DNA from: an uncultured Acidimicrobiia bacterium
Lineage (GTDB): Bacteria; Actinomycetota; Acidimicrobiia; Spongiisociales; UBA5794
Assembly: GCA_963704825.1 (NCBI GenBank)
Contig: CAVPHV010000021.1
Coordinates: 38,771-102,770, forward strand
Length of the DNA stretch: 64,000 bases
Direction: 5' to 3'
Shown here: piece by piece, positions 38,187 to 55,337 of the stretch
Numbering within the stretch: the stretch's first letter is position 1
Layout: every line of letters starts with the position of its first letter
Notes under the pieces: model-generated
Databases searched by the model: none
What the model saw: the letters and a program-made list of their open reading frames with translations, nothing else
Told to the model about the DNA's origin: nothing
Made by a program: the position numbers and the translations under genes

Positions 38187-38227
38187 ACGGTTTTGCCCCC
38201 TCGGAATCCGCTGGGTAGCTTCCGCTT

Positions 38228-39384: not shown

Positions 39385-39398
39385 CTATCGATCGATAG
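39385..39398. promoter_or_regulatory. Palindromic operator CTATCGATCGATAG (copy 1), upstream of the aor operon
   Basis: Perfect 14-bp palindrome next to the RBS, 9 bp before the GTG. Same core at 51241-51260 and 51945-51960. Confidence 0.75.
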
Positions 39399-39407
39399 GA
39401 GGCGGGT

Positions 39408-41366
39408 GTGCAGTACGGATACGCAGGCAAAATCCTGCATGTCGACCTGACGAAGGGCACGCTCGACGTCGAGGAACCGTCCGACGACATCTACCGGACC
39501 TACATGGGCGGGAGCGCCCTCGGTCTCTACTACCTCTTCAAGAACACTCCAGCCGGCGCCGACCCCTACGGGCCCGAGAACACACTCGCCTTCATGCTCG
39601 CCGGGGTCACCGGAGCGCCCGTAGCCGGCCAAAGCCGAGCAACGGTCGTCGCCAAGTCACCTCTGACCGGCGGCGTCGGCGACAGCCAAGCCGGCGGCTT
39701 CTGGCCGGCCGAACTCAAGTTCGCCGGATTCGACGGGATCGTGGTGCGCGGGATCTCCCCCAAGCCCGTCTACCTGTGGATCAACCAGGGCGAAGTCGAA
39801 CTGCGCGACGCCGACCACCTCTGGGGCAAGACCACCCTCGAGGTCGACGAGATTCTGCAAGAGGAACTGGGCGACAAGCGGATCCAGGTCGCCCAGATCG
39901 GCCCGGCCGGCGAAAAGCTGGTTCGCTACGCCGCCATCATGAACATGCACGCCCGCGCTCACGGACGCACCGGAATGGGCGCCGTGATGGGAAGCAAGAA
40001 GCTCAAGGCGATCGTGGTTCGCGGCGGCAAGAAGAAGCTGCCGATGGCCGATCCCGACGGGCTCAAGAAGATCATGCAAGGGACACTGCCCAACATCCGA
40101 GGGGATGAGGACGTCTTCGATCTCGCCAAGTACGGGACCATCGGCATCCTGGAGAGCCAAAACGGCTCCGGCGGCCTCCCCACCCGCAACTGGCAGAGCG
40201 GATTCATGGGGTACGACCGCGCCGCGGCCATCGGCGGGGAACGGCTCTACGACGAGCTGTTGCGTGGTGCCCCCGAGGAGACCCAGTTCAAGCAGGGGCG
40301 CGAGACCTGCTACTCGTGTGCGGTGCGGTGCAAACGAGTCGTCCAGGCCGAGTGGGAAGAGCGGATGATCGACCCCGAATACGGTGGACCCGAATACGAA
40401 ACCGCGTCGACCTTTGGGTCGTATTGCGACATCGACGACCTCCACGCCGTCTCCTACGCCAATCAACTGTGCAACGAATACGGCGTCGACACCATCTCGG
40501 CCGGAGCCACGATGGCGTTCGCCATCGAGTGTTTCGAGCGGGGCCTGATCACGGTGGAGGACACCGGCGGTATCGAACTCGGCTGGGGCAAGGCGCCCGA
40601 GATGATCGCCATGCTCGAGTTGACGCTCAAGCGTGAGGGGTTCGGCGACATCCTCGCCGAGGGCTCGGCTGCGGCCGCCGCCCACATCGGCAACGGATCG
40701 ACGGACTTCCTGGTGACGTCGAAGGATCAGGAGTTCCCCGCTCACATGCCTCAGGTGAAGCCGTCGTTGGCCCTCATCTATGCGGTGAATCCCTTCGGAG
40801 CGGATCACCAATCGAGCGAGCATGACCCGATGTACACGCCCGAGGTCATTGCGGACTCCCCGGACAAGTATGGCAAGCGCATGGCCGATATCGGGTTGAC
40901 CGATCCGCAACCCGAGGACGTACTCAACGAGGAGAAGGTGCGCTACGCCCTCACCACCCAATACGCCTACTCAGCGCTCGACACCGCTGATGTGTGCCAG
41001 TTCGTGTTTGGGCCGGCCTGGCAGCTGATGGGGATGGAGGACCTCGCCGACATCGTGACAACCGTCACCGGGGAGGACACCACGGTTGATGATCTCCTCA
41101 CCATCGGGAAGCGCCGATTGAACCTGCTGCGAGCCTTCAACGCTCGCGAGGGCATAACCCGCGAACGCGATACCCTTCCGAAGCGCCTGTTCGAACCGCT
41201 CAGCGGTGGACCGTCGAATGGCAAATCGATCGACCAGAAAGAGTTCGAGGCGGCCCTCGCAATGTATTACCAACAGGCCGGTTGGGATCCGGTCACCGGG
41301 AACCCGCCCCGCGAGACACTCGAAAGCCTTGATCTTGGTTGGGTAGCCGACGAACTCGGCGTCTGA
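39408..41366 (+). CDS. aor: Aldehyde:ferredoxin oxidoreductase (tungstopterin AOR family)
   Basis: Motifs GYAGKILHVDL, AKSPLTGG, GRTGMGAVMGSKKLKAI, CYSCAVRC, GPEYET and CNEYGVDTIS. Confidence 0.93.
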   Translation: MQYGYAGKILHVDLTKGTLDVEEPSDDIYRTYMGGSALGLYYLFKNTPAGADPYGPENTLAFMLAGVTGAPVAGQSRATVVAKSPLTGGVGDSQAGGFWPAELKFAGFDGIVVRGISPKPVYLWINQGEVELRDADHLWGKTTLEVDEILQEELGDKRIQVAQIGPAGEKLVRYAAIMNMHARAHGRTGMGAVMGSKKLKAIVVRGGKKKLPMADPDGLKKIMQGTLPNIRGDEDVFDLAKYGTIGILESQNGSGGLPTRNWQSGFMGYDRAAAIGGERLYDELLRGAPEETQFKQGRETCYSCAVRCKRVVQAEWEERMIDPEYGGPEYETASTFGSYCDIDDLHAVSYANQLCNEYGVDTISAGATMAFAIECFERGLITVEDTGGIELGWGKAPEMIAMLELTLKREGFGDILAEGSAAAAAHIGNGSTDFLVTSKDQEFPAHMPQVKPSLALIYAVNPFGADHQSSEHDPMYTPEVIADSPDKYGKRMADIGLTDPQPEDVLNEEKVRYALTTQYAYSALDTADVCQFVFGPAWQLMGMEDLADIVTTVTGEDTTVDDLLTIGKRRLNLLRAFNAREGITRERDTLPKRLFEPLSGGPSNGKSIDQKEFEAALAMYYQQAGWDPVTGNPPRETLESLDLGWVADELGV

Positions 41367-41416
41367 CCAACCATCAAGGACCTACAACATCAACAGGACA
41401 AGGAGTCGGAGTAGCC

Positions 41417-41878
41417 ATGAAATGGTGGAAGTGGTGGGTGATGATCGGCGCAGTGGCGCTCCTGGCGAGCGCATGCTCCGGTGACGACGAAGCAGACGCC
41501 GAGACCGTGGACTTGCCGCCGCCCGCCGACGACGTGGTGCTGCGGGTGATCGTCGACCAAGAAATCGCCGCCGACTGGACCCTTGAGGAACTCGACTACA
41601 GCCTGCCGTTCGCCACGCTGACCCTCGATGGCGACGAGCAGGAGGGGCCGCTACTCCTCGAGGTACTGGAAGCATCAGGCGTCGTGGATTGGGAATCCAT
41701 GGAGGTGCTTGGTCTCGGCGAGGGTCGAACTTTTGAGGTGACCTTGTTCGTCAACGCACCCGAGGTCAACGAAACCTGGATTCTCGACGTTTCCAACCAG
41801 GGCACACTGAAGCTCGCCGCCGAGAATCTGCCGCGCGAGAAATGGGTACGAGACGTTGCCGAACTCCGGATCAACTGA
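41417..41878 (+). CDS. Lipoprotein, possibly with a molybdopterin-oxidoreductase-like fold
   Basis: Lipobox LASAC. Motifs WTLEEL, EGPLLLEVLEASGV and C-terminal KWVRDVAELRI. Confidence 0.65.
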   Translation: MKWWKWWVMIGAVALLASACSGDDEADAETVDLPPPADDVVLRVIVDQEIAADWTLEELDYSLPFATLTLDGDEQEGPLLLEVLEASGVVDWESMEVLGLGEGRTFEVTLFVNAPEVNETWILDVSNQGTLKLAAENLPREKWVRDVAELRIN

Positions 41879-42587
41879 CCGCGCCGTCATCGGCATCGAC
41901 GACACCGACACCCCCGATGAAGGAGGTACCGGGTGCCTGGCGCGCCGTCTCGTCGGTGAAGTCGAAGCGCTCGGCCTTGGCGTGTCGCTCGGCGTCACCC
42001 GACATCAGTTCTATCAGGGCCCAGAAGTCCCCAAGACGGCGCGCAACTCGGCTGCGGCCATCATCTTCCGCGAGCCGGCCGATCCCGAGGCACTGTTCGA
42101 GGCGGTGACGACCATCGTTTCCCGCGAGTCGATCCGGGGATCCAATCCCGGCGTCGCCATGCTCACCCGCAAGCCACCGCGCCCCGCCGTCCTGTTCGCC
42201 CGCCTCGCTCAGCAGACGATCGTCACTCAGGAGCAGACAGTCACGCTGGCCGCGGCCGTCGAGGTGACCCTGGCCGGCCTGGGCGGAACCGAGGGCGGCA
42301 TCATCGGCGCATTCGGCGCCGCCGTATTGAGAGGCGACGGCCGCGACGGCCGGTTTGTCGGGCTGCGCGGCATTCGCGACGTGTCCGGCGAAATGACCGT
42401 GGCCGATCTGATCGCTGCCACGGACATTGCGGCCGTGGTCAACGTCGACGGATGGGAACCGCTCGAAGCCGAGACAAGCCTCGACATCGGTGACTGGGTT
42501 CGTCCCCGGCTCATCGGGGGTCGTCCCGTCATCGTTGCCCGCGAGGAGAAGGGATCGTGGGTCAATGCAGACACACGCCGTCAGTAG
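41856..42587 (+). CDS. TiaS N-terminal-like (GIDDTD) protein
   Basis: IGIDDTD, VPKTARNS, SNPG and GIIGA resemble the catalytic domain of the agmatidine synthetase TiaS. Too short to include tRNA-binding domains. Confidence 0.6.
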   Translation: MPNSGSTDRAVIGIDDTDTPDEGGTGCLARRLVGEVEALGLGVSLGVTRHQFYQGPEVPKTARNSAAAIIFREPADPEALFEAVTTIVSRESIRGSNPGVAMLTRKPPRPAVLFARLAQQTIVTQEQTVTLAAAVEVTLAGLGGTEGGIIGAFGAAVLRGDGRDGRFVGLRGIRDVSGEMTVADLIAATDIAAVVNVDGWEPLEAETSLDIGDWVRPRLIGGRPVIVAREEKGSWVNADTRRQ

Positions 42588-43146
42588 AGCCACGGCAACC
42601 AGCCGGCCTCTCTACGTCGATGTTCTGCTCGCCCTAGCGATCGGGTTCGTCGCAGCCTTGGCCAAACGATATCTCGACTTCTCCCTCGGCATTCCCGGTC
42701 ACGCCGGAGTGGGGTGGATCGCGGTTTTGGTGCTCGGCCGGATCGTCAACCCGCGGCGCGGCATGGCCACCCTGGCCGGTATCTCGATGGGATTCTGGGG
42801 GATCCCAATCGGACTCGACCACTCCGTTGCCTACAACACGTTGCTCTATGGCGTCTCCGCCGGTCTGCTCGACATGCCGGTCGTGGCGCGGCTGCCGCTG
42901 CGTCGGCCCTGGGGCGCCGCAGTCGCGGGGATCATCGTGCACCTCGGCAAGTACGCCTTCGTCTTCATCAACGCTTGGGTATCAGGCATCGTCCGGCGCG
43001 TCGTCGTGTACGGCCTTGCCGCCGCCCTGGGCAACCACATCCTCTTCGGCGCCCTCGGCGGCTTGCTGGGATGGACGGTGTGGCGCAGCGGGAGGGCCAT
43101 CGCCTACAGGGTGCGGCCATCGCACCGCTCCATCGGCTCGGCGTAG
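42565..43146 (+). CDS. Integral membrane protein, ECF S-component-like
   Basis: About 5-6 hydrophobic helices, LGIPGHAG and NHILFGALGG. Confidence 0.6.
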   Translation: MQTHAVSRATATSRPLYVDVLLALAIGFVAALAKRYLDFSLGIPGHAGVGWIAVLVLGRIVNPRRGMATLAGISMGFWGIPIGLDHSVAYNTLLYGVSAGLLDMPVVARLPLRRPWGAAVAGIIVHLGKYAFVFINAWVSGIVRRVVVYGLAAALGNHILFGALGGLLGWTVWRSGRAIAYRVRPSHRSIGSA

Positions 43147-43154
43147 GTTCTGCG

Positions 43155-44660
43155 GTGGTGCAGGTTTCGATCCCCGGTGCATTGCGCAGATACGCCGCCG
43201 GGCACGAGACGGTTCCCGTTGCCGGCGCCACGGTGGCGGAAGCACTCCGGGCTGCTGCCGTCGCCCATCCCGACCTCCAGATCCGGCTCTTCGATTCGGC
43301 AGGAAGTCTCCACCCGCACCTGACGGTATTCCACGACGATGATCAGGTGCCGCGTGACGAGCTCGACTCGACCCCGGTCGGACCCGACGACCGCGTCGAT
43401 GTGCTGATCGCCATCGTCGGAGGCGCCGAGGATGTGCGGATGCGGGGGTTCCGGGATCGCGCAACCGTCGCGACGGCGCTCGCCACCGCTGTTGCCGGCG
43501 TCGAGCCGCTCCCGGCGGAATCGGTCGAAATCGCCGCCGCCGTCGGACGAGTGCTGGCAGAAGCCGTGGTGAGCGAGGTCGACGTGCCTCCCTTCCGGCG
43601 GGCCACGATGGATGGCTATGCGGTGTGGGCCGAGGCGACGTATGGAGCGTCGCCGTACAACCCGGCGGTGCTCGAGGTCGTCGGTGAAAGCATGCCGGGC
43701 ACCACTCCCCCGGACATGGTTGGACCGGACGCGGCGTGCCGCATCATGACGGGTGCCCCGGTTCCGCACAACGCCGACGCCGTCGTCCGGGCCGAGGACG
43801 CCACTGAACGCGGTTATCACGTCGAGATCACGGCGCCGGTAGCCACCGGCCGCAACGTGGGCCGGATCGGTGAGGACATCGCGATAGGCGCCGAGGTGCT
43901 GCCGGCAGGTCGGCGACTGCTCCCCCAGGACATCGGACTGCTCGCCTCGATCGGGCACGAGCCCGTCGCGGTACACCGCAGGCCTGCGGTGCGGATCATC
44001 GTTTCGGGAGACGAGTTGCTTGCGCCTGGGGCGCGACCTGGAGGCACCAGCATCGTCGACAGCAACTCACCGATGCTCGCCGCCCTCGTGGCCCGCGACG
44101 GCGGCGTCCCCACCGTCGTTCGGCTGCCGGACGACCGCGACGTCATGCGAGCTGCACTGGCCGAACCGGGTGCCGACGTGATCGTTACGGCCGGCGCAGC
44201 TTCGGTCGGACGCGAGGACAACGTCCCGTACCTGGTCGCCGAACTCGGCGAACTGACCATCCACGGTGTTGCCATGCGACCCTCGTCACCGAGTGGCGTC
44301 GGACGGATCGGCTCGGCGCCGGTGCTACTGCTGCCGGGAAACCCGGTCTCATGTCTCGTGGCGTACGACTTCTTTGCCGGACCGGTGATCCGCATCCTCG
44401 GCGGTCGCTCCGAGAGGTGGCCCTACCGCACGGTTCGGCTGCCACTGAGCAAGCGGATCGTGTCCCAGATCGGCCGCACCGACTACGCCAGGGTGACCGT
44501 GAAGGACGGCGCCGTTGAGTCGCTTGCAGTGAGCGGCGCATCGGTCCTTTCGTCCGTCACGCGCGCGACGGGGTTCGTTGTGATCCCGGCCGGTCTCGAG
44601 GGTTACCCGGAGGGCGCCGAAGTGGACGTCCACCTCTATGACGACGAGGCGGCATTGTGA
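43155..44660 (+). CDS. moeA: MoaD/ThiS-MoeA fusion protein
   Basis: N-terminal VQVSIPGALRRY...GATVAEAL...AIVGG (ubiquitin-like) reads in frame into MoeA motifs VDVPPFRRATMDGYAV, IMTGAPVP, SGDEL and LLPGNPVS. Confidence 0.85.
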   Translation: MVQVSIPGALRRYAAGHETVPVAGATVAEALRAAAVAHPDLQIRLFDSAGSLHPHLTVFHDDDQVPRDELDSTPVGPDDRVDVLIAIVGGAEDVRMRGFRDRATVATALATAVAGVEPLPAESVEIAAAVGRVLAEAVVSEVDVPPFRRATMDGYAVWAEATYGASPYNPAVLEVVGESMPGTTPPDMVGPDAACRIMTGAPVPHNADAVVRAEDATERGYHVEITAPVATGRNVGRIGEDIAIGAEVLPAGRRLLPQDIGLLASIGHEPVAVHRRPAVRIIVSGDELLAPGARPGGTSIVDSNSPMLAALVARDGGVPTVVRLPDDRDVMRAALAEPGADVIVTAGAASVGREDNVPYLVAELGELTIHGVAMRPSSPSGVGRIGSAPVLLLPGNPVSCLVAYDFFAGPVIRILGGRSERWPYRTVRLPLSKRIVSQIGRTDYARVTVKDGAVESLAVSGASVLSSVTRATGFVVIPAGLEGYPEGAEVDVHLYDDEAAL

Positions 44661-46591
44661 AGCAGCGGCAGTTCCTCGATGTTGTTGACGAAGCGCTTGC
44701 CCACGAGCGCTTCGACGCTGCGACCGCGCACCTCGCACCGCGCTTCGAACAGATCCCGCTCGACCAAGCTTCGGGACGGGTCCTCGGAGAGGACGTCGTT
44801 GCCGCGGTCGACGTACCCGGGTTTGATCGCAGCAACATGGACGGCTTTGCGGTGCGGGCCACCGACACTCACGGCGCCGAGGAACTCGAGCCGGTCGTCC
44901 TCGCCGTCGCCGACCTGTCTCTGGCCGCCGGGCAAGCCCCTCCCGCAGGGTTCGAGCTTGCGCCCGGCCAGGCCGTCCCCATCGCCACCGGCGCTGTGGT
45001 GCCGCGCGGCGCGGACGCGGTGGTGATGGTCGAGCACACCGAACCCGATGCTGCGGGGGTCAAGATCACCAGGCCGTCGGCACCGGGCGGAAACGTCACC
45101 TTCGCGGGGTCCGACATCGGCCGCGGCGAGATCGTGATGCGACGCGGAACTCGCCTCACGTCACGCGAGACCGGGGTGCTGGCCGCGGTCGGGGTTGCCG
45201 AGGTCACCGTCGTCCGCCGCCCAAGGGTTGCCGTCATCTCGACGGGCGACGAGATCGTGGCGCCGGGGCGGCCGATGGGCGTCGGACAGGTCTACGACTC
45301 CAACCAGCGCATCCTGCTCGACGCCGTTGCCGAACTGGGCGGGGAGCCGATCGGACGCGGCATCGTCCCCGACGACGAGCGCCTCCTCGAGGCGGCGATT
45401 GAGCCACTGCTCACCGGGCCTGATCCCGTTGATGCGGTACTGCTGTCGGGGGGCACATCGAAGGGCGAAGGGGACGTCAATGCCACCGTCGTACATCGTC
45501 TCGCCCAGAGGCTTCCCGACTCTGCAGGCGTTGTCGTCCATGGCGTCGCTCTCAAGCCGGGCAAGCCCATCTTGCTCGCCGTAGTTGCCGAGACGCCGGT
45601 CGTGGTCCTGCCCGGCTTCCCGACCTCGGCGATCTTCACGTTCCATGAGTTCGTCGCTCCCCTGCTCCGCCGTCTCTCGGGCCGAGTTGAGCCCGACCGG
45701 GCGGTGGTTGCAGCGGTGACGCCGCTGCGCATCACCTCGGTTCCCGGCCGGACCCACTACTCGCTGGTCGACCTTGTTGTCGGGTCAGATGGTCTCGCCG
45801 CGTACCCGCTCGGGGCAGGCTCGGGCAGCGTCACCGCATTCGGTCGAGCGGACGGCTTCATCAGGATCCCAGCCAACACCGAGTACGTTGCCGAGGGGGC
45901 GCGAGTCTCGGTTCATCTGCTCCACGCCGAGATCAGGCCGGCCGACCTCGCCGCCATCGGCAGCCACTGCATCGGACTCGACTACCTATTGGGCCTGCTG
46001 ACCGACGAAGGGTTTCGGGTCAAGATGGTGCCGGTCGGCTCGATGGGTGGGATCACCGCGGTCGGCCGCGGCGAGGCCGACGTTGCCGGGATTCACCTCA
46101 TGGACGGGGAAACGGGTGAGTACAACGCACCGTTTCTACCGCCAGGCGTCAGGCTGCTGCGGGGTTATCGGCGCCGTCAGGGAATCGCCTTTCGGAACGG
46201 GGATCCGCTCCTCGACGTCGCCGACGAGGAGGCCCTGTTCGCTGCAGTCCGGCAGGGTTCCGTGCGCATGGTCAATCGCAACCCCGGGGCGGGGACCCGG
46301 ATCATCATCGATCAGCTCCTGGAGGGCCGCACCCCCGACGGATACCTCCACCAGGCCAAGACCCACCACTCCGTCGCCGCCGCCGTCGAACAGGGTCGCG
46401 CCGACTGGGGCGTCACGCTCGATACGGTGGCCGCCTCGGCCGGCCTGGGCTTTCACTTCCTCCAAGACGAGCTCTACGACTTTGCGGTCCCCGAGTCACG
46501 CTGGGACCGCCCGGCGGTCGTGGCCTTCCGCGCCCTGCTCGACGACCCCAAAATAGCGGCCGGCCTGCGCACCCTCGGCTTCGAGCGCTAG
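44657..46591 (+). CDS. moeA: MoeA with C-terminal periplasmic-binding-protein-like (molybdate/tungstate) domain
   Basis: Motifs DVPGFDRSNMDGFAV, STGDEI, SGGTSKG and LPGFPTSA, then GSHC, GSMGG and NRNPGAGTR. Confidence 0.9.
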   Translation: MKQRQFLDVVDEALAHERFDAATAHLAPRFEQIPLDQASGRVLGEDVVAAVDVPGFDRSNMDGFAVRATDTHGAEELEPVVLAVADLSLAAGQAPPAGFELAPGQAVPIATGAVVPRGADAVVMVEHTEPDAAGVKITRPSAPGGNVTFAGSDIGRGEIVMRRGTRLTSRETGVLAAVGVAEVTVVRRPRVAVISTGDEIVAPGRPMGVGQVYDSNQRILLDAVAELGGEPIGRGIVPDDERLLEAAIEPLLTGPDPVDAVLLSGGTSKGEGDVNATVVHRLAQRLPDSAGVVVHGVALKPGKPILLAVVAETPVVVLPGFPTSAIFTFHEFVAPLLRRLSGRVEPDRAVVAAVTPLRITSVPGRTHYSLVDLVVGSDGLAAYPLGAGSGSVTAFGRADGFIRIPANTEYVAEGARVSVHLLHAEIRPADLAAIGSHCIGLDYLLGLLTDEGFRVKMVPVGSMGGITAVGRGEADVAGIHLMDGETGEYNAPFLPPGVRLLRGYRRRQGIAFRNGDPLLDVADEEALFAAVRQGSVRMVNRNPGAGTRIIIDQLLEGRTPDGYLHQAKTHHSVAAAVEQGRADWGVTLDTVAASAGLGFHFLQDELYDFAVPESRWDRPAVVAFRALLDDPKIAAGLRTLGFER

Positions 46592-46601
46592 AGGTCCCAA
46601 T

Positions 46602-46656
46602 CCGTTCTTGCGTGGTTCAGGCGCGCTTTTCGGTACCCCAGCCACGCAAGAACAGG
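46602..46656. repeat. REP-like imperfect palindrome, copy 1
   Basis: gttcttgcgtggtt...ggtacc...gccacgcaagaac. Confidence 0.8.
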
Positions 46657-46692
46657 AAGGGGTTGAATTCGACGCTGTGATTTGGTCCTCTG

Positions 46693-47652
46693 ATGGCGAT
46701 GCTCGATATCGACGCTCGAATTGGCCGACTGGCCCGTCTCCAACATGGAGTCGTGAGCACAGCGCAATGCAGCGACCTCGGGATGCGGAAGCGCCAAGTG
46801 AGCGAACGGGTCAGATCTGGAGTCCTCCTCCGCCCCTTCGAGGACGTCGTTGCGCTCGCCGCCGTGCCGCCGACTTGGAAGCAGAAGGTGATGGCGAGTG
46901 TGCTCGCAGCGGGCAACGATGCGCTTGCCTCCCACCGGACCGCGGCCTACCTGTGGGGGCTGACCTCGTACCAACATCCCACCATCGAGGTCGTCATGCC
47001 ACGCTGGGAGCGAGCGTTTCGCGAGTTCACGGTCCATGAGTCGCTCGATCTGATCGCCAAAGATCGGAGGGAGACGGATGGCATCCCGACAACGTCGCCG
47101 GAAAGGACAGTGGTCGACCTGGGTGCAGTTGCCCCGTGGTTGGTGGAGTCGGCACTCGATACCGGCATTCGCAAGGGCCTCTTCAAGCTTGTCGATGTCC
47201 AGGCATTCGTGAACCGAGTGGCACGCCGCGGCCGTCGCGGCGTGGGCGTGATCAGGCCATTCCTCGAAGCTCGCAGAACGTGGGACGCGGCGACGGAAAG
47301 CGCACTCGAAGATCTGTTCTGCCGAGTCCTGGCAGAGTACAACGTTCCCCTTCCCGTCGCTCAGTTCGTCCTCCGCAACGATGCCGACGCCTTTGTGTGC
47401 CGGGCCGACTTCGCGTATCCCCATCGCAGGATCCTGATCGAACTCGACAGCGAGGCACACCACATGGATCGTCAGACGTTCCGCCGCGATCGCGCCAAGC
47501 AGAACCAGACCGGCCGTTTGGGCTGGCGCACCCTCCGCTACACCTGGTGGGATCTCACAGAAACCCCATGGCGGGTAGCCGACGACATCAGGGCGCTTCT
47601 CGATCCCCTGCCGCACGAACAGCCGCACGAACAAGCGCACGAACAAGCGTGA
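46693..47652 (+). CDS. AbiEi-like N-terminus + DUF559/Vsr-like endonuclease protein
   Basis: LARLQHGVVS, ASHRTAAYLWGL, GIPTTSPERTVVDL, ESALE, RADFAYP...IELDSEAHH and RDRAKQN...GWRTLRYTW. Confidence 0.85.
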   Translation: MAMLDIDARIGRLARLQHGVVSTAQCSDLGMRKRQVSERVRSGVLLRPFEDVVALAAVPPTWKQKVMASVLAAGNDALASHRTAAYLWGLTSYQHPTIEVVMPRWERAFREFTVHESLDLIAKDRRETDGIPTTSPERTVVDLGAVAPWLVESALDTGIRKGLFKLVDVQAFVNRVARRGRRGVGVIRPFLEARRTWDAATESALEDLFCRVLAEYNVPLPVAQFVLRNDADAFVCRADFAYPHRRILIELDSEAHHMDRQTFRRDRAKQNQTGRLGWRTLRYTWWDLTETPWRVADDIRALLDPLPHEQPHEQAHEQA

Positions 47653-47764
47653 TCAAGGTACGGAAAACGGTACCCGAGCCACGCAAGAACAGATTGCGCC
47701 AGCCCCCAAGCCGTTTCGGCGTGGTTGGAGCGCGGTTTTTGGTACCGCAACCACGCAAGAACGG
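47644..47764. repeat. REP-like palindromes, copies 2 (degenerate, about 47644-47692) and 3 (47711-47764)
   Basis: Both contain ggtacc and end in ccacgcaagaac. Copy 3 starts ccgtttcggcgtggtt. Confidence 0.75.
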
Positions 47765-47766
47765 GT

Positions 47767-49581
47767 TTAGAGGTATCCGGCGGCGGTGGCGCGTCTGTCC
47801 AACTCGGCGATGACCTCGGTCTGGACCTCGGCGAAGAATTCCGGGGTGTTGAAATAGGGCAGCGTGGAGTTGACCATCGGCTCGTGGGCTTCGGCGGGCA
47901 GCACGAAGTCGGCCTTGCCAAAACCGGTGCGGCGCTCGACGGCGTAGCCGCGCAGGAAGGTGCGCATCACGACATCGACCAACTCGTCTTCGGTGATAGC
48001 GAGCCCGGCGGCGATCCCGAGCGCCTCCGCTTCGAGGGCCGGGGTTGCGTTGGCGAACTTGCACAGCCCGGTGATGTCGTCCATCAGATACAGCGGACCG
48101 CGGTTGGTGATGGCGTCGACCCAGTAGTCGACACTGGTCTCGCGTTCGATGACGAACAGGAAGAACGTGCGCATCGACATGTGCCCCCCTGCCAGCGCCC
48201 ACGCAAAGCCGGGGTTGGTCTGGGGCTGATACGCCGGGTACTCGACACCCTTCGAGTGCATGGCATAGCCACCCTCGCCGGTTTGGTCGGCGAGCCGCTT
48301 CACCCCTTGGCCCAGCTCGACGAGTCGCCCGGCGGCGATCTCGTGCATGACGTCGAGGACAGCCCCGACATCGCCGTACCCGATGCCGCCCCCCAGCGAC
48401 CCCTCGTTGCGGCGGTTGTACTCCATGGCGTAGCCGATGGTCACCCCGAGCGAAATGGAGTCCATCCCCAGTTCATCGGATAACTCGATGAAGGTGAGCG
48501 CCGGGTCCGGATCGAAGATCCCCAGGTTGGACGACAGCAGTGTGATCGGCTCGAAGTCGACCTTGGCCCGGAACGCCCCGGCCTCACCCTCCGGGCCTTC
48601 GTCGTAGACGTTCTTGTGACACCTGATGCCGCACAGATAACACCCCTCGGCCTTGACGACATAGGGACCCGCCTCAACGCTGGGGCGCAGCAGCGGGACC
48701 GAGGCGTCGGTTCCGCTCGGGGCGAAGTTGAACTCGGGAAGCGATTGCGCCTCCTGCATCATCTTCATCGTGCGCCACGTGCCGCCACGATCATTGGGGA
48801 GGTCGCGGTAGCGGGCACTCCCCTCTCCGAGGTTGATTTCCTTGTTGATGTCCCTCAGGCCGCGCTCCCGACCCGGGTCTGGCCCGTCGGCGGCGATCGC
48901 CCACAGATTCTTCGAGGCCATCACCCCGCCAAAACCACCGCGGGCGCAGAACCGCGCCTTGGGGTCGCCGCTCTCCAATTGGTTGTCGGTGGTGACGGCG
49001 ATGGCGGCGTAGCGCACCGCCTCGTAATGCTCGGCCGCCGGGCCGGTCACGGCGAAATGGGCATCCGGGTACCGGCCGTGGAGGTCGTGAACCCGGTCGT
49101 TGATCATCCGGCCCGCCAGGTCGCTCGCATCGAGAAACTGGAAGACGGGCCCGTCGGCACCGGGCGAGACGTGCAGCAGTGTTGGGTGGTCGCCGCGGCC
49201 GGTGAAAACCACATCATCGATCCCCAGCCCACGAAGCTTGGTACCGAAGTGCCCACTGCCCGCCGACCACATCAGGCCGGGCGCACCAGACGCGGACACT
49301 TTGAGCGGTGAGTAGCCGTGGAAGAATGTGCGAAGCCCGGTCATCACCCGGGTGCCGCTCAGCAACCCGATGTTCATCATCAGCGGGGCGGCCGGGTCGT
49401 AGGGATCGTCGACCTCGACGTCGGCGAGGTACTTCGTCGCCCGGGCGATCCCACCGAGGGCGTCCTCGAAATCCGCGCAGGCGATCCGCTCGAGCCGAAC
49501 GGTACGGGTCGACAGGTCAACGTGGTATCGATTCGCCGAAAATGCGGTGGCCGGCTCCGGCTCACTCACCTGCACGAGCAC
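47767..49581 (-). CDS. Second, divergent AOR-family oxidoreductase
   Basis: Motifs YSPLK, ARGGFGGVMASKNL, CYLCGIRC, DELGMDSIS, GVKRLA and MHSKGVEYPAY. Confidence 0.85.
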   Translation of the reverse strand: MLVQVSEPEPATAFSANRYHVDLSTRTVRLERIACADFEDALGGIARATKYLADVEVDDPYDPAAPLMMNIGLLSGTRVMTGLRTFFHGYSPLKVSASGAPGLMWSAGSGHFGTKLRGLGIDDVVFTGRGDHPTLLHVSPGADGPVFQFLDASDLAGRMINDRVHDLHGRYPDAHFAVTGPAAEHYEAVRYAAIAVTTDNQLESGDPKARFCARGGFGGVMASKNLWAIAADGPDPGRERGLRDINKEINLGEGSARYRDLPNDRGGTWRTMKMMQEAQSLPEFNFAPSGTDASVPLLRPSVEAGPYVVKAEGCYLCGIRCHKNVYDEGPEGEAGAFRAKVDFEPITLLSSNLGIFDPDPALTFIELSDELGMDSISLGVTIGYAMEYNRRNEGSLGGGIGYGDVGAVLDVMHEIAAGRLVELGQGVKRLADQTGEGGYAMHSKGVEYPAYQPQTNPGFAWALAGGHMSMRTFFLFVIERETSVDYWVDAITNRGPLYLMDDITGLCKFANATPALEAEALGIAAGLAITEDELVDVVMRTFLRGYAVERRTGFGKADFVLPAEAHEPMVNSTLPYFNTPEFFAEVQTEVIAELDRRATAAGYL

Positions 49582-49641
49582 CTCCTCGTTCGTCCGCTGG
49601 ACCCCTGCGGGGCCACGAACGCGAGGCTACACCCGTCGGCG

Positions 49642-50982: not shown

Positions 50983-51027
50983 CTATTTGCTCCTCGTTCT
51001 CTTGTTCTGTGGTGTGGGGTCGGGCGG

Positions 51028-51207
51028 TCAGTGGTTGGTCAGAATCAGTAGCGAGGGATCTGCTTCGGTTCCCGCCGAGAATCCGCGCTCGGGCCAGTCG
51101 CGCACCGTCGCGGGTTCGGCAGCTTGCACCATGGTGCCGTCGGCGCGACCAACGATGACCCGGCGTAGCCGACTCCACTCGTTCCAAGAGTTGACGATCT
51201 TCGCCAC
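51028..51207 (-). pseudogene. Truncated amidinotransferase (glycine amidinotransferase-like N-terminus), 59 aa
   Basis: Not in the ORF track. GAGGGG RBS then GTG. Translates as MAKIVNSWNEWSRLRRVIVGRADGTMVQAAEPATVRDWPERGF, then stops. VNSWNEW..L..VIVG is the amidinotransferase N-terminal signature. Confidence 0.7.
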
Positions 51208-51240
51208 AGCTTGCCCCTCTTCTCGATGCTGTCACCACTC

Positions 51241-51260
51241 TACCTATCGATCGATAGGTA
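51241..51260. promoter_or_regulatory. Palindromic operator TACCTATCGATCGATAGGTA (copy 2), between tetR and the divergent operon
   Basis: Perfect 20-bp palindrome, 41 bp upstream of the tetR ATG and 33 bp upstream of the divergent GTG. Confidence 0.82.
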
Positions 51261-51301
51261 TGCGACATCGACTAGCCTATCAAGTGCTAGGGAAGGATTT
51301 C

Positions 51302-51940
51302 ATGGGAACCGCGCCGACGGATATCGCCGACCTCTCAACCCGCCAGCGAATTCTGCGAGAAGCCTCACTCTTGTTCGCCACCAAGGGCTACCACGGGACC
51401 TCGACCCGCGAGATCGCCGCCGCGGTCGGGATCCAACAGCCCTCGCTCTTTCATCACTTCGAGTCAAAGGACGCGATCATGGCCGACCTGATCGCCTTCG
51501 ATCTCGACGAACCCGTCGCCGTCGCCGAACGCGAGGCAGCGGCGGACGGCTCACCGGCGTTGCGCTTCTACCGCTACCTGGTGTGGGACATCGCATTCCT
51601 CTGCAGCTCCCCCTACAACCTCTCGTCGATCGAAACGGTCCGTACCGACCCGGCCTTTGCCTCTGCCGGGCACCGCTTCCGCCGCATCGCCGAGGCTCGG
51701 GAGTCCATGATCGCCCAGGCCGTCGCAGCGGGAGAGTTCATCGAGATCGACCCAACGTTCGCTCAGCTGGCGATCCTCTGGATGATCACGGGAACCGTGA
51801 CCGAGGTGAGCGGCGAACCGGACGATCGAGCCCGAGAGATTGCCCATCAGCTCGCCTCCTTTGCGTTGCGGGCGCTCTTGAAGAACCCGTCACAACTCGA
51901 GGAGATTCAGGCCATTGCCAGCACCAACGACTCTGAGTAG
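51302..51940 (+). CDS. TetR/AcrR-family transcriptional regulator
   Basis: ATG at 51302. HTH: RQRILREASLLFATKGYHGTSTREIAAAVGIQQPSLFHHFESK. Confidence 0.92.
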   Translation: MGTAPTDIADLSTRQRILREASLLFATKGYHGTSTREIAAAVGIQQPSLFHHFESKDAIMADLIAFDLDEPVAVAEREAAADGSPALRFYRYLVWDIAFLCSSPYNLSSIETVRTDPAFASAGHRFRRIAEARESMIAQAVAAGEFIEIDPTFAQLAILWMITGTVTEVSGEPDDRAREIAHQLASFALRALLKNPSQLEEIQAIASTNDSE

Positions 51941-51944
51941 AATA

Positions 51945-51960
51945 CCTATCGATCGATAGG
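51945..51960. promoter_or_regulatory. Palindromic operator CCTATCGATCGATAGG (copy 3), upstream of the aminotransferase-ald operon
   Basis: Perfect 16-bp palindrome in the 40-bp gap between tetR and the aminotransferase gene. Confidence 0.8.
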
Positions 51961-51980
51961 CAAACGAGAGAGGCTACGCC

Positions 51981-53189
51981 GTGCCGAGCCCATTCCTCCA
52001 TCCCTTCACCCCACCACGCAAGGACAAGTTCCTGACCATCACCGGAGGCAAGGACGCCGTCGTCTGGGACGACGCCGGCAAGGAGTACATCGACGGCATG
52101 GCCTCTCTCTGGTACGTCAACGTCGGCCACGGTCGCGCCGAGATGGCCGACGCCATCGGCGCCCAGGCGAAACAGCTCGCCGCATATCACGCCTTCGACC
52201 CCTTCACCAACGAGCCCGCCGAGGCGGCCGCCGCCAAGATCGCTGAACTCTCCCCGTACGAGGGTGCCCGGGTGTTCTTCGGCACCTCAGGGTCGGAGGC
52301 CGTCGACACCGCGATGAAGCTGGCCCGGATCGCCCAGCGGGAAGCCGGCCACCCGGAGAAGACCATCGTCGTCAGCCGAGAACGTGGCTACCACGGCACC
52401 AACTACGGCGGCACCTCGCTCCAAGGCATCGCCCCCAATCGCGAGGGCTTCGGCCCGCTGGTACCCGGCGTGATGAACGTCATGGCCGAGGACGAGGAGG
52501 AGATGAAGCGGGTCTTTGCCGACCACGGCGACGAGATCGCCGCCGTCATCACCGAGCCGGTCCAGGGTGCCGGCGGGGTGTGGCCTCCCCCACCGGGCTA
52601 CCTCCAGTATCTGCGTGACCTGTGCGACGCCTACGGCGCCTACCTCATCCACGACGAGGTCATCACCGGCTTCGGACGCCTTGGCGCCTGGTTCGGCAGC
52701 CAGTTCTACGGCGTCACACCCGACATGATCACCTTCGCCAAGGCCGTGACCTCGGGTTACGTACCCTTCTCCGGGGTCATCGTCGGACCGGACGTTGTCG
52801 CCCCGCTCGAAGCCAACGATGGCTTCCTGCTGCGCACCGGCTACACCTACTCAGGCCATCCGCTTGGCGCCGTGGCCGCCTTGAAGTCAATCGAGATCCA
52901 GGAGCGCGAGGGCCTGCTCGCCCGCGCCACCGCCATCGGGGCTCGCCTCGAACACCGCCTCGACGACCTCCGCAACGACGGGCTCGTGACCAACGTCCGC
53001 GGCGACGGGGCGGTGTGGGGCGTATCACTCCCCGACGGCGTCGATGCCGTCGCAGCCCGTGACGCTCTGCTCGCCGAGGGCGTGATTGTTCGGCCGCTCC
53101 CTCCCCACCTGTTGATGTGCCCGCCACTGGTCATCAGCGACGACCAGATCGACCGTATGGTGGCGGCCATGCGCAAGGTGCTCTCGTGA
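51981..53189 (+). CDS. Class III PLP-dependent aminotransferase (omega-amine:pyruvate type)
   Basis: Motifs YIDGMASLWYVNVGHGR, SGSEAVDTA, GYHG, EPVQGAGG, DEVITGFGRLG, FAKAVTSGY and TYSGHP. Confidence 0.92.
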   Translation: MPSPFLHPFTPPRKDKFLTITGGKDAVVWDDAGKEYIDGMASLWYVNVGHGRAEMADAIGAQAKQLAAYHAFDPFTNEPAEAAAAKIAELSPYEGARVFFGTSGSEAVDTAMKLARIAQREAGHPEKTIVVSRERGYHGTNYGGTSLQGIAPNREGFGPLVPGVMNVMAEDEEEMKRVFADHGDEIAAVITEPVQGAGGVWPPPPGYLQYLRDLCDAYGAYLIHDEVITGFGRLGAWFGSQFYGVTPDMITFAKAVTSGYVPFSGVIVGPDVVAPLEANDGFLLRTGYTYSGHPLGAVAALKSIEIQEREGLLARATAIGARLEHRLDDLRNDGLVTNVRGDGAVWGVSLPDGVDAVAARDALLAEGVIVRPLPPHLLMCPPLVISDDQIDRMVAAMRKVLS

Positions 53190-53223
53190 AGTATCAAGCC
53201 AATCGAGTTCACGGAGGTGAACG

Positions 53224-54345
53224 ATGATCGTCGGAGCCCCCAAGGAGATCAAGAACGCGGAGCGCCGGGTCGGCCTCACCCCCGGCAGCGTTCGTGAATT
53301 GGTGGCGCACGGTCACGACGTGGTTGTCGAGACAGAAGCCGGTGTCGGCATCATGGCCTCCGACGACGACTATCTCGGCGCCGGGGCGGAGATCGCAGCA
53401 ACGGCCGACGAGGTGTGGGAACGAGCCACGCTCATCGTCAAGGTCAAGGAACCCCAGGCGGTGGAACGCGCCAGACTCCGACCCGACCACGTGCTCTTCA
53501 CGTACCTCCACCTGGCACCGGATCCCGACCAGACCAAGGATCTCGTCGCCAGCGGCGCCACCTGCATCGCGTACGAGACCGTCACCGATGCCGCCGGCGG
53601 CCTCCCCCTCCTCGCCCCGATGTCTCAGGTGGCCGGTCGCATGTCCATCCAGGCGGGGGCCCATTGCCTCGAAGCGCCCCACGGGGGAGCCGGCCTGCTG
53701 CTCGGTGGGGTCCCCGGCGTGCATTCGGCCTCCGTTGTAGTGCTCGGCGGCGGCGTCGTCGGCGAACACGCCATCCAGATGGCGGCCGGTCTCGGCGCCG
53801 ACGTCACCGTGCTCGACAACAACGTCACCGTCCTCGCCACACTGGCGCGGCGGTTCGGTGTTGCCCTCGAGACCGTCTACTCGACCCGCACCTCGGTCGA
53901 GGAGTACGTACTCAACGCAGATCTCGTTGTCGGCGCCGTCCTCGTCAAGGGCGACCGGGCGCCGCGTTTGGTGACGGCCGAGATGGTGCGCCAGATGCGG
54001 CCTGGTTCGGTCCTCGTCGATGTTGCTATCGACCAGGGTGGCTGCTTCGAGACCTCCCGGCCAACGACGCACGAGAAGCCGACGTACATCATCGATGAGG
54101 TCGTCCACTACTGCGTCGCCAACATGCCTGGTGCCGTCCCGAAGACGTCGACATACGCGCTCAACAACGTGACGCTGCCGTTCACGCTGGCGCTGGCCGA
54201 CAAGGGCGCCCGCAAGGCCATGCTCGATGACGTGCACCTGCTGGGCGGCCTCAACGTCTGCAACGGGTTCGTCACCGAAGAGCACGTGGCACGGGCTCTC
54301 GGCTACGACTACGTCGATCCAGCCGTAGCTCTTGCCGACGCCTAG
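53224..54345 (+). CDS. ald: Alanine dehydrogenase
   Basis: Motifs [56 protein letters not shown] and [12 protein letters not shown]. Confidence 0.96.
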
Positions 54346-55337
54346 GAAGACATTCCGGCGGCGCGCTCGGCAAGGCCGTTGAGGATTTCGAGCACGACGC
54401 GGTTGCCGAGCAACGAGGTGATCGCGCCCGGTCCGTCATAGGGCGGAGAGATTTCGACGATGTCGGCGCCAACGATGTTCAACTCGCGGCTCAACCGGCG
54501 CACGGTGTCGAGCAGCTGCCGGGCAGTCAGTCCGCCCGGCTCCGGCGTGCCGGTTCCGGGCGCCATGCCGGGGTCGACGACGTCGATGTCGATGGAGAGA
54601 AACACGCCGGACGCACCCTCCCCGGCGTAGCGGACTGCGTCATCCACCACGGCGGGGAGTCCACGCCGCTCGATTTCGGTCATCAGGTAGGAGCGCATCC
54701 CCTGCTCCTTCATCCACGCCATCGTTTCGGGCCCCGGCCAGTAGCCGCGCAGACCGACCTGGACGAAACGATGGCCGGGCACGGCGCCGGACTCGATCAG
54801 GCGCCGCATCGGCGTGCCGTGACCGTAGAGCGCTCCAATCCCGTGAGTCCTTCCCGTATCGGCGTGGGCATCGAAGTGGACGAGGGCGACCTTGCCGAAC
54901 CCATGAACGCGGGCAACGCCGGTGGCGTCGGCGTAGGTGATGGTGTGATCGCCGCCGAGCACAATCGGGATCGACCCTGAGGCGCTGACCTGCTCAACCG
55001 TGGCGGCGATGCGCTCCAAGTCGCCCTCGATGTCGCCCGGTGAGAGCAGCACATCACCGATGTCGACCACACCTTCGAGGGCGTCAAGACCGGTGGGCAG
55101 GTGGGGGCGTTCCCCGTCGGCGCCGAGAGTGTCGCTCTCCCGAATCGCCTTTGGACCAAAGCGGGCGCCGGGCCGGTTGGTGGTGCCCCAATCGAACGGC
55201 GCCCCGATGATCACGGCGCGGGCACCCTGCAGATCGTCCAGAGTCGCGGCGGGAACGCCGGCAAAGGAACTGGTTGCGCTGAACTGGTTCTGTCGTGCCG
55301 CCTCGAATGGGGTTCCTGCAGCCATCTCACTCTCCAA
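54342..55337 (-). CDS. Ureohydrolase (agmatinase/guanidinobutyrase family)
   Basis: Motifs RPGARFGP, GGDHTIT, HFDAHAD, HGTPM and SIDIDVVDP...GTGTPEPGG. The start may be ATG 55325. Confidence 0.9.
   Translation of the reverse strand: MESEMAAGTPFEAARQNQFSATSSFAGVPAATLDDLQGARAVIIGAPFDWGTTNRPGARFGPKAIRESDTLGADGERPHLPTGLDALEGVVDIGDVLLSPGDIEGDLERIAATVEQVSASGSIPIVLGGDHTITYADATGVARVHGFGKVALVHFDAHADTGRTHGIGALYGHGTPMRRLIESGAVPGHRFVQVGLRGYWPGPETMAWMKEQGMRSYLMTEIERRGLPAVVDDAVRYAGEGASGVFLSIDIDVVDPGMAPGTGTPEPGGLTARQLLDTVRRLSRELNIVGADIVEISPPYDGPGAITSLLGNRVVLEILNGLAERAAGMSS

Follow-up and report, generated by a model that had tools for sequence, protein, structure and literature searches.

The locus and its palindromic sites

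The DNA studied here is a stretch of 64,000 nucleotides (the window) from an uncultured Acidimicrobiia bacterium of the UBA5794 lineage (assembly GCA_963704825.1, contig CAVPHV010000021.1, positions 38,771 to 102,770), in which a group of genes between positions 39385 and 55337 is marked by a short repeated palindrome. From left to right these genes encode a canonical aldehyde:ferredoxin oxidoreductase (AOR1) with adjoining cofactor genes, a divergent enzyme of the same family (AOR2), an ArcE-family protein, the remnant of an L-arginine:glycine amidinotransferase (AGAT), a TetR-family regulator, a class-III aminotransferase, an alanine dehydrogenase (Ald) and a ureohydrolase whose gene converges on ald (Table 1). 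A preliminary description made from the sequence alone had located the palindrome at 39385, 51244 and 51946 and had read it as the mark of a TetR regulon linking tungsten-type AORs to guanidino and polyamine catabolism. Exact matches are present at all three positions, and its calls of all these genes, MoeA included, hold against Pfam, NCBIfam and PDB.

Table 1. Features of the window at and around the locus (window positions; scores as bits or E-values)
Feature	Position	Strand	Evidence and remarks
Box 1, tCTATCGATCGATAGg	39385..39398		9 bp before the AOR1 GTG; 3' end overlaps the GGAGG ribosome-binding site
AOR1, canonical single-subunit aldehyde:ferredoxin oxidoreductase	39408..41366	+	AFOR_N 257 bits, AFOR_C 377 bits
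Methanogenesis marker 11 / TiaS TCKD-like protein	41856..42587	+	TIGR03280 E 1e-12 (below cut-off), PF22641 weak
Hydrophobic ORF, 239 aa	42427..43146	+	high GC3; start uncertain; overlaps the preceding gene as listed
MoaD/ThiS-like-MoeA fusion	~43158..44660	+	Pfam ThiS, MoeA_N, MoCF_biosynth, MoeA_C
MoeA-PBP-like oxyanion-binding fusion (predicted metal insertion into the pterin cofactor)	44657..46591	+	NF011068 702 bits (cut-off 534), PBP_like 156 bits
AbiEi-antitoxin-like / REase_MTES_1575-like gene	46693..47652	+	between the MoeA-PBP gene and AOR2
AOR2, divergent AOR-family enzyme	47767..49581	-	AFOR_N 120 bits, AFOR_C 145 bits, both above cut-offs
ArcE-family protein (arginine synthetase, ADP-forming), 446 aa	49642..50982	-	homology to a Hyperthermus protein
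AGAT remnant	51028..51207	-	~47 N-terminal codons, then out of frame
Box 2, cCTATCGATCGATAGg	51244..51257		intergenic, between divergent tetR and AGAT remnant-ArcE-AOR2
Box 2b, CTATCAAGTGCTAG, degenerate	51277..51290		12 bp before the tetR start codon; one core mismatch
TetR-family repressor, AmtR-like, 212 aa	51302..51940	+	Pfam TetR_N PF00440 56.5 bits, cut-off 24
Promoter-like TTGCCA-17-TAGAAT	51915..51943	+	10/12 consensus matches; -10 overlaps the tetR stop
Box 3, cCTATCGATCGATAGg	51946..51959		in the 40 bp between tetR stop and aminotransferase start; 21 bp before the start
Class-III aminotransferase, 402 aa, pyruvate-dependent omega-transaminase type	51981..53189	+	Aminotran_3 302 bits
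Alanine dehydrogenase	53224..54345	+	TIGR00518 504.9 bits, cut-off 391.85
Agmatinase-family ureohydrolase, convergent on ald	54342..55337	-	PF00491 282 bits
NHL-repeat/Big_7 and RTX run	3310-10044, 15525-19883, 20884-24588, 24751-28050, 28275-31709, 36523-39277, 62733-63887

All three copies of the 14-mer CTATCGATCGATAG are intergenic, and at sites 2 and 3 it forms part of a longer 16-bp palindrome, CCTATCGATCGATAGG; the flanking sequence differs among the copies. The window contains no additional match with up to two mismatches (0.12 expected), and none of 100 shuffled sequences gave three. Scanning the assembly (3,898,187 bp in 25 contigs, 65% G+C) returned the same three sites both without mismatch and with up to one, five sites with up to two and 90 with up to three mismatches, so the palindrome is not frequent elsewhere in these 3.9 Mb; from base composition we calculate that about 0.004 exact copies would be expected per genome. 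The core CTATC-N4-GATAG is perfect at these three places only, genome-wide (about 1.25 expected), and the looser pattern CTAT-N6-ATAG is seen five times against about 12 expected from composition. Because this loose pattern is not enriched, the case rests on the identity of the sites, on their clustering within 12.6 kb and on their position.

With regard to position, the promoter-like element, which is a match to the consensus only (1 found versus 0.1 expected from shuffles), ends 2 bp before box 3, so that a bound repressor would block the aminotransferase-ald promoter. A promoter scan upstream of AOR1 found nothing. The location of boxes 2 and 2b in the divergent region between tetR and the ArcE operon suggests autoregulation.

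Outside the locus a near-perfect box (cCTATCGGTGAATAGg) occurs in this genome (G000) at C18:254288 (L103:4001-4014), between a 470-aa gene without Pfam family and pntA, encoding the transhydrogenase alpha subunit. This could possibly be an extra target which would link the regulon to the NADPH/NADH balance. Two other near-boxes were dropped, one (C1:130559) lying inside an apparent 23S rRNA, as read by eye, and one (C18:362041) being without gene-like neighbours.

An AmtR-like regulator

The top PDB match of the window TetR is AmtR from M. smegmatis (5e57, E 1.2e-19, N-terminal 130 residues), and the C. glutamicum AmtR structures 5mqq, 6gy3 and 5dy0 match it at E ~2e-12; an NCBIfam search matched no AmtR model. 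PMC2723105 gives the AmtR box as tttCTAT-N6-AtAGat/aA, with an essential 6-nt spacing as opposed to the 5-base spacing of Tn10 TetR, and names Thr42, Gln53, Ser55, Tyr57, Tyr58 and His59 as important among the DNA-contact residues of C. glutamicum AmtR. The window site CTAT-CGATCG-ATAG has this published pattern, a CTAT/ATAG inverted repeat with a 6-nt spacer, at all three places. When the window TetR is aligned to 5mqq, Thr42, Gln53, Ser55 and His59 are identical, Tyr57 is replaced by Phe and Tyr58 by His, and His43 of the C. glutamicum protein corresponds to Arg. An Arg is also found at this position in Tn10 TetR, where it contacts the G of CTATC (same source), and we infer that it fits the invariant fifth position of the boxes described below. 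The regulator is therefore most likely AmtR-like, judged by its sequence, and the site an AmtR-type box.

In C. glutamicum, AmtR is released from DNA by GlnK and not by a metabolite. A single PII gene is present in the genome (C17:168865). Since the boxes are confined to one locus, bar the possible pntA site, the regulator appears to be a local one and not a global nitrogen regulator. The signal is likely to be nitrogen status or a ligand, with nitrogen status or a protein partner no less probable than agmatine or putrescine.

Conservation of the box in relatives

Orthologues of the TetR occur in G001 from the same genus (90% identity), in G012 from the same family (63%) and in G028 and G039 from another family of the same order (55%), and in all four genomes the same box adjoins tetR and precedes the same gene families. 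The genomes of 185,579 species were scanned with the TetR alignment, which yielded 80 loci: 66 have at least one perfect CTATC-N4-GATAG core, two have one-mismatch cores only and 12 have none. A set of 23 loci was then picked, comprising the closest TetR genes, AOR2 loci and four Acidimicrobiales chromosomes. Here 39 of 46 perfect boxes lie at most 270 bp upstream of the start of a gene of the families counted as targets (TetR, AOR1, AGAT, ArcE, aminotransferase, Ald, ureohydrolase, PotD-like transporter genes and ornithine carbamoyltransferase, OTC); since the loci are related and were chosen via TetR or AOR2, these counts are not independent and serve to illustrate a pattern instead of testing it statistically. 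Thirty-eight boxes taken from 19 close loci give the consensus C-CTATC-R-A-T-Y-GATAG-G, in which the half-sites are kept and the central four nucleotides vary.

Individual boxes can be followed through the relatives as well. Box 2 has orthologues in G001, G012, G028, G039, L025, L026, L029 and L109, and analogues of box 2b (...CGCTAG) stand directly before tetR in L023-L026 and L075. Box 3 orthologues are located 28-34 bp before the aminotransferase gene in G001, G028, G039, L023, L024 and L109, and a box 1 orthologue precedes AOR1 of G001 (L013:1601). PotD-like transporter genes lie behind boxes in G028, G039 and L030. Given that the same box stands beside orthologous tetR genes and before the same gene families across genera and families, the neighbouring TetR very likely has the palindrome as its operator, which agrees with the regulon originally proposed.

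More distant TetR proteins with the same box are encoded beside an amino-acid ABC transporter and a gamma-glutamyltranspeptidase (Mycolicibacterium), an amino-acid permease and an amidase-like gene (Pimelobacter), a permease and a C-N hydrolase (Streptomyces), and a ureohydrolase and an aminotransferase (Ca. Aldehydirespirator, for which the literature gave a family name only and nothing on function). At the mycobacterial loci that have CTATC boxes the TetR shows only 32-37% identity and may represent a different paralogue. A second TetR paralogue (35% identity) is found at L032:14788-18161 and L018:6907-10251, together with a longer class-III aminotransferase; the L032 locus also has an AGAT homologue (51%), and the boxes of this paralogue have A/T-rich centres (CTATCATTTGATAG). 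These loci may constitute a second regulon in parallel, whose operator has diverged. Nothing claimed here depends on G027 and G038, two unpublished genomes.

The ArcE-family protein and the amidinotransferase remnant

The protein between AOR2 and the AGAT remnant has no Pfam or NCBIfam family, and its match to cyclic 2,3-diphosphoglycerate (cDPG) synthetase is weak (E 0.01). It shares 47% identity with a Hyperthermus butylicus protein over 442 residues, that is the full length (E 9e-147). The family comprises 595 representatives at E <= 1e-30. A representative with 45% identity is crenarchaeal, its close relatives from Hyperthermus, Pyrodictium and Ignisphaera being named 'GTPase' or 'cDPG synthase', and the ESM Atlas returns 'putative GTPase / cDPG synthase' clusters only. 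In PMC11032458 the ArcE reaction in the direction of breakdown is arginine + ADP + Pi -> citrulline + NH3 + ATP; the holders of ArcE include Hyperthermus and Pyrodictium, the family is placed in Thermococcales, Desulfurococcales and Thermoproteales with Actinomycetota mentioned, and homologues are described as annotated as GTPases, weakly cDPG synthase-like and in some cases located beside arcB or arcC. According to the same text the enzyme from T. kodakarensis is specific for L-arginine and inactive on agmatine. The accessible supplement text of that paper mentions neither Acidimicrobiia nor Actinomycetota. By its homology to the Hyperthermus protein the window protein, first described as ArcE-like, thus appears to belong to the arginine synthetase family. 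Its translation contains a Walker A motif (GCGKS) and an hhhhDGG motif, where the naming of the motifs is our own, as well as NKID.

In the window ArcE is not flanked by OTC or carbamate kinase genes. In G012 it is followed by a true OTC (TIGR00658 388 bits, cut-off 281), to which the OTC homologues beside ArcE in L025 and L026 are 84-90% identical; an OTC adjoins ArcE in L129 too, G414 has OTC, carbamate kinase and ArcE in one gene string, and carbamate kinase lies beside ArcE in six of 15 further loci. ArcE is present in 55 of 401 sampled Acidimicrobiia genomes. The genome under study carries, on other contigs, a carbamate kinase gene (381 bits, cut-off 358) and OTCase-family genes. At C4:2106-7166 (G000) a GntR-type regulator, two carbamoyltransferase-family genes and a carbamate kinase gene are grouped with no AmtR-type box; this set could provide ArcE with the OTC and carbamate kinase steps, unless it is part of a different pathway for ureido compounds.

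Intact AGAT homologues exist in G001, G028, G039, G317 and G414, and an intact relative matches PDB 1jdw/1jdx at E 1e-73; in the window the complete catalytic domain is absent. Compared with the sister genome G001, ~975 bp of the amidinotransferase gene (L013:13369-14343) are missing here (window 50983-51243), as are ~980 bp (L014:6100-7077) with a box and an agmatinase gene (NF002564 322 bits, cut-off 302) at window 55338-55471. Two public DNA runs, from different studies, contain contigs that bridge the amidinotransferase joint, so that this deletion is unlikely to be an assembly artefact, even if one of the runs may itself be the source of the assembly. Only guanidino-entry steps were lost through these two clean deletions of ~1 kb, and without the amidinotransferase and the boxed agmatinase the version of the module found here is a reduced one.

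AOR-family enzymes and cofactor genes

AOR1 matches P. furiosus AOR (PDB 1aor) over its full length (E 3e-108) and retains both the cysteines of the [4Fe-4S] cluster (CxxCxxxC and a fourth Cys) and the pterin motifs. AOR2 is distant from every solved AOR, its best PDB match being 1aor at E 2e-22. Its sequences CYLCGIRC, DITGLCKF, DELGMDSIS and GRGGFGGVM align with the CxxCxxxC, fourth-cysteine and pterin-binding motifs of AOR1, for which we take the cofactor-binding residues to be those of the P. furiosus enzyme. Ten of the 401 Acidimicrobiia genomes, all from one order, possess members of the AOR2 subfamily, and all ten also carry ArcE. As judged by these comparisons, AOR2 is a distinct, previously unclassified AOR subfamily.

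The gene context was examined for 15 AOR2 copies, seven of which are part of box-controlled strings: AGAT-ArcE-AOR2 in G001, G028, G039 and G317, remnant-ArcE-AOR2 in the window, ArcE-AOR2 in L029, and AGAT-aminotransferase-AOR2 as one boxed string in G414. Such conserved operons, either AGAT-ArcE-AOR2 opposite aminotransferase-Ald or the string of G414, support the proposed link between AORs and amine or guanidino metabolism. Among the eight unboxed copies, two are found by zinc alcohol dehydrogenases, two by MoeA genes and AOR1, and one beside ArcE. These contexts are consistent with AOR2 oxidising aldehydes and having been recruited to the amine module, and they argue against ArcE as an AOR2 maturation factor. 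The unboxed AOR2 paralogues of G039 (L111:6382-9763) and G028 (L112:6969-12500) stand beside zinc alcohol dehydrogenase, creatininase-family and xylose-isomerase-like TIM-barrel genes, which looks like a separate alcohol/aldehyde module.

Several smaller features accompany the AOR genes. The methanogenesis-marker-11-like protein lies beside the MoaD/MoeA genes in the window and directly after tetR in L029 (L029:11074-11793); it resembles the kinase domain of the tRNA modifier TiaS, which uses agmatine. The hydrophobic ORF has no Pfam or NCBIfam match and is kept in G001 and G317. For the MoaD-MoeA fusion the maximal ORF is 42714-44660, with a likely GTG start near 43158. The AbiEi-like gene, which G001 has as well (90% identity), looks like an insert unrelated to the two AOR units that it separates. 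A tungstate transporter gene was not found in the window.

Aminotransferase, alanine dehydrogenase and ureohydrolase

The best PDB matches of the aminotransferase are putrescine, polyamine, beta-alanine and amine:pyruvate transaminases (6gwi, E 1e-73), the closest solved relative being a putrescine:pyruvate transaminase. The ureohydrolase reaches 183.1 bits with TIGR01230 (cut-off 174.3) and 229 bits with NF002564 (cut-off 302). Its best PDB match is the 3-guanidinopropionase 3nip (E 7e-59), and 3-guanidinopropionase and guanidinobutyrase are its closest solved relatives; no box was found upstream of the gene. For agmatine, which the preliminary description had put forward as a substrate, support is weak: the boxed agmatinase of G001 speaks for it, but in the window genome this gene is deleted and the remaining ureohydrolase is unboxed and nearest to guanidino-acid hydrolases.

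Proposed function of the regulon and alternatives

Starting from what is observed, namely the sites, their uniqueness and conservation, the gene families and the two deletions, we propose with a probability of about 0.55 that the AmtR-like repressor encoded next to the palindrome has it as its operator and would govern a module for the extraction of nitrogen from arginine or amines together with AOR-family enzymes. Binding and repression, the signal, the amine substrate and the electron acceptor of the AORs are the inferred parts of this proposal. A TetR dimer would bind the 16-bp inverted repeat CCTATC-RATY-GATAGG, which is CTAT-N6-ATAG with the spacing of the AmtR box, and would repress four units: tetR itself, via boxes 2 and 2b; the divergent operon of the AGAT remnant, ArcE and AOR2; the aminotransferase-alanine dehydrogenase operon; and AOR1 together with the MoaD/MoeA genes for cofactor insertion, this last unit in the present genus alone. 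The module would serve to gain nitrogen from arginine and from guanidino or omega-amino compounds related to it. ArcE would deiminate arginine to citrulline with a yield of ATP, the omega-transaminase would shift the terminal amino group of an amine (candidates are ornithine, putrescine, gamma-aminobutyrate (GABA) and beta-alanine) onto pyruvate, alanine dehydrogenase would free the nitrogen as ammonium and restore pyruvate, and the leftover aldehyde would be converted to the acid by the AOR-family enzymes. Nitrogen status, sensed via a partner protein as in Corynebacterium, or a ligand are candidate signals.

Several observations weigh against this proposal. The AmtR match is modest (74 bits, confined to the N-terminal 130 residues), and the second PDB match, 3vpr, follows at E 2e-16. 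The AmtR proteins of S. avermitilis and M. smegmatis are reported to recognise TAtCTGTCa-n2-cGACAGATAT, with a CTGTC-type core (PMC8864220). None of the near-boxes listed is close to the PII gene, and no box was found beyond this locus except the possible one at C18:254288. The conservation counts come from dependent loci, as stated above, and eight of the 15 AOR2 copies have no nearby box. The AOR1 box is restricted to this genus: the window and G001 support the supposed connection of box and AOR1, and AOR1 of G317 (L109) is without a box, so that this part of the earlier claim stands for the genus alone. A scan of the window for CxxCxxCxxxC[P/A/G] detected no ferredoxin motif, and a dedicated ferredoxin is not supported. 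For the aminotransferase, the NCBIfam models of defined specificity all stayed below their cut-offs. Finally, no urease was detected with the UreC of G028 as query, a single query against a 95%-complete assembly which does not show absence.

For the intact module of G001, G028, G039 and G317 a further idea can be offered, tentatively and as an unlikely one: ornithine may act as a catalytic amidino carrier in a cycle of AGAT, ArcE, OTC and carbamate kinase, which the window genome would be losing. The AGAT homologue would take the amidino group from a guanidino compound in the environment and pass it to ornithine, giving arginine, from which ArcE, OTC and carbamate kinase would restore ornithine, releasing both nitrogens as ammonia and forming two ATP. 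The de-amidinated amine would lose its last nitrogen through the pyruvate transaminase and alanine dehydrogenase, and AOR2 would oxidise the aldehyde. If true, this would be an energy-conserving, urea-free degradation of guanidino compounds under an AmtR-type switch.

Among the alternatives to our proposal, the one closest to the preliminary description is a substrate-sensing TetR freed by agmatine, putrescine or a guanidino acid, with an anaerobic route from agmatine via putrescine and 4-aminobutanal to GABA in which AOR replaces the NAD-dependent dehydrogenase. Most TetR-family proteins do bind small ligands, the box precedes a true agmatinase in G001 and PotD-like transporter genes in G028, G039 and L030, the closest solved relative of the aminotransferase accepts putrescine, and the organism is present in sediment metagenomes. 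We nevertheless consider it improbable for the window genome, where the agmatinase and its box are deleted and the remaining ureohydrolase, unboxed, is nearest to guanidino-acid hydrolases. It also gives no role to ArcE, whose T. kodakarensis counterpart is inactive on agmatine (PMC11032458), and the Corynebacterium AmtR is released by GlnK instead of a metabolite. Moreover, the genome has three matches to heme-copper oxidase subunit I (COX1) and, elsewhere, seven full-length matches to NAD(P) aldehyde dehydrogenases, and with these neither the label 'probably anaerobic' nor a lack of NAD-dependent alternatives is supported. Bacterial AorABC is reported as air-tolerant in cell extracts (PMC6365974), and the use of an AOR by an aerobe therefore remains compatible with these findings. 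Quite improbable, in our estimate, is a complete route from arginine to glutamate, consisting of ArcE, OTC, an ornithine:pyruvate delta-transaminase and AOR2, the latter acting on glutamate semialdehyde in place of P5C dehydrogenase, with AGAT and the ureohydrolases merely feeding in other guanidino compounds. The smallest conserved boxed set is indeed ArcE plus the aminotransferase, with or without Ald: ArcE-OTC lies opposite TetR-aminotransferase-Ald in G012, L025 and L026, and L118 has ArcE, a box and the aminotransferase. The OTC-carbamate kinase-ArcE string of G414 and the presence of ArcE in all ten AOR2-bearing genomes among the 401 also fit such a route. However, the aminotransferase scores 227 bits with the ornithine aminotransferase model TIGR01885 (cut-off 378) and resembles omega-amine:pyruvate enzymes, the operons of G012, L025 and L026 have ArcE and the aminotransferase without AOR2, and that of G414 has AGAT, aminotransferase and AOR2 without ArcE or OTC. 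In addition, glutamate semialdehyde exists mainly as cyclic P5C.

The neighbourhood of ArcE and AOR2, which adjoin in seven loci, might also be explained if the ArcE-like protein were a P-loop GTPase maturing AOR2 by metal or cofactor insertion and the regulon served general aldehyde detoxification. The NKID and Walker A motifs, a precomputed cobW/HypB Pfam match of some homologues and a weak PDB match to HypB (E 0.05) would agree with this. Yet the ArcE family occurs in 55 and AOR2 in 10 of the 401 genomes, eight of the 15 AOR2 copies are without an adjacent ArcE, and many ArcE homologues adjoin OTC or carbamate kinase instead; the NKxD motif is not kept in the Hyperthermus relative, and the 47% full-length identity links the window protein to a genus listed as an ArcE holder (PMC11032458), so that we regard a maturation factor as very improbable. 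It is hardly credible, lastly, that the palindrome is not a protein operator at all but a chance repeat, the remnant of a mobile element or an RNA hairpin. The site does contain short common palindromes (ATCGAT, CGATCG) and would be transcribed within the 5' leader of AOR1, but the box is unique in the genome with different flanks at each copy, its half-sites are kept in relatives and its central four nucleotides vary, and it is consistently placed before the same genes across families, always together with one TetR subfamily.

Genomic and environmental context

The ureohydrolase gene is followed by trkH and trkA. The locus is flanked by genes for very large NHL-repeat/Big_7 proteins and several proteins with RTX calcium-binding repeats (Table 1). 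Further upstream, at 10425-15440, genes for an asparagine-synthase-like cyclase (11761-13830), a transglutaminase-like protease (10425-10841) and an NTP_transf_5 protein (14295-15440) possibly form a biosynthetic set of the lasso-peptide type.

The window stretch is present in metagenome runs from sediment, soil and marine sediment in three studies, among which may be the source of the window itself; estuary and salt-marsh runs with small shares were not counted for habitat. One estuary metatranscriptome library contains contigs on 51203-51850 (tetR) and 53214-54207 (parts of ald) with 95-99% identity, a weak hint that close relatives express tetR and ald in nature; contigs from an RNA library cannot show transcription, and no meaning attaches to stretches that they leave uncovered.

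Significance and comparison with known systems

Within the literature searched, no paper joined AOR with putrescine or agmatinase metabolism, with AmtR, with arginine synthetase or with Acidimicrobiia, although supplementary material elsewhere might be relevant. The regulator type and each enzyme family are known already; the novelty lies in their combination, in the AOR2 subfamily, in an AmtR-type box within Acidimicrobiia and in the regulatory context of a bacterial ArcE. AmtR-type control would thereby be extended from Corynebacteriales and Streptomyces to uncultured sediment Acidimicrobiia, and the sharply defined 16-bp operator could be used for regulon prediction across Actinomycetota and Chloroflexota. 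The recently discovered ArcE would be set in a regulated bacterial context with an amidinotransferase, a transaminase/alanine dehydrogenase pair and AOR2. The locus further suggests a role in nitrogen scavenging for tungsten-type aldehyde oxidoreductases, in organisms which have aerobic respiratory genes as well.

With the GbuA, GpuA and SpeB routes the locus shares a ureohydrolase nearest to 3-guanidinopropionase and guanidinobutyrase, and a SpeB-type agmatinase that is boxed in G001. Unlike in those routes, the agmatinase and its box are deleted here and no urease appeared with the UreC query used. The pairing of a pyruvate omega-transaminase with alanine dehydrogenase is known from taurine:pyruvate Tpa-Ald. 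As in the Tpa-Ald and putrescine:pyruvate SpuC systems, a pyruvate-type class-III aminotransferase stands next to a bona fide alanine dehydrogenase, but the aminotransferase is short (402 aa) and the predicted consumer of the aldehyde belongs to the AOR family instead of being an NAD(P) aldehyde dehydrogenase or Xsc.

Over its full length AOR1 is homologous to P. furiosus AOR, and it has the cluster and pterin motifs. Its gene has MoaD-like and MoeA genes beside it, as aorD and aorE lie beside aorABC of Aromatoleum aromaticum (PMC6365974). In contrast to that system, no genes for an AorA or AorC subunit or a ferredoxin are found nearby, and the AORs are predicted to be co-regulated with nitrogen-catabolic genes. 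The ArcE of the window belongs to the same protein family as that of the ArcE-ArcB-ArcC system of T. kodakarensis, and OTC or carbamate kinase is adjacent in several Acidimicrobiia. Here, however, ArcE is co-oriented with an AOR-family gene at a distance of 60 bp, ancestrally accompanied by an amidinotransferase and provided with an AmtR-type box, and the host is mesophilic with aerobic respiratory genes.

The regulator resembles AmtR of C. glutamicum in its TetR-type helix-turn-helix, in the CTAT-N6-ATAG operator and in identity at four of six DNA-contact residues, and C. glutamicum AmtR likewise governs genes for alternative nitrogen sources, including the guanidino compounds creatine and creatinine. 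It differs in that one neighbourhood is boxed here instead of a large regulon with amtB-glnK, glnA, gltBD and urea uptake, in the strict 16-bp palindrome with its invariant C/G at position 5, and in the exchange of His43 for Arg as in Tn10 TetR. Autoregulation is also likely here from the arrangement of the boxes, whereas amtR of C. glutamicum is not autoregulated according to PMC2723105. With its predicted role as a local regulator of a few nitrogen-scavenging genes and not a master, it resembles AmtR of M. smegmatis and S. avermitilis as portrayed in PMC8864220, and is set apart from these by a CTATC core in place of CTGTC.

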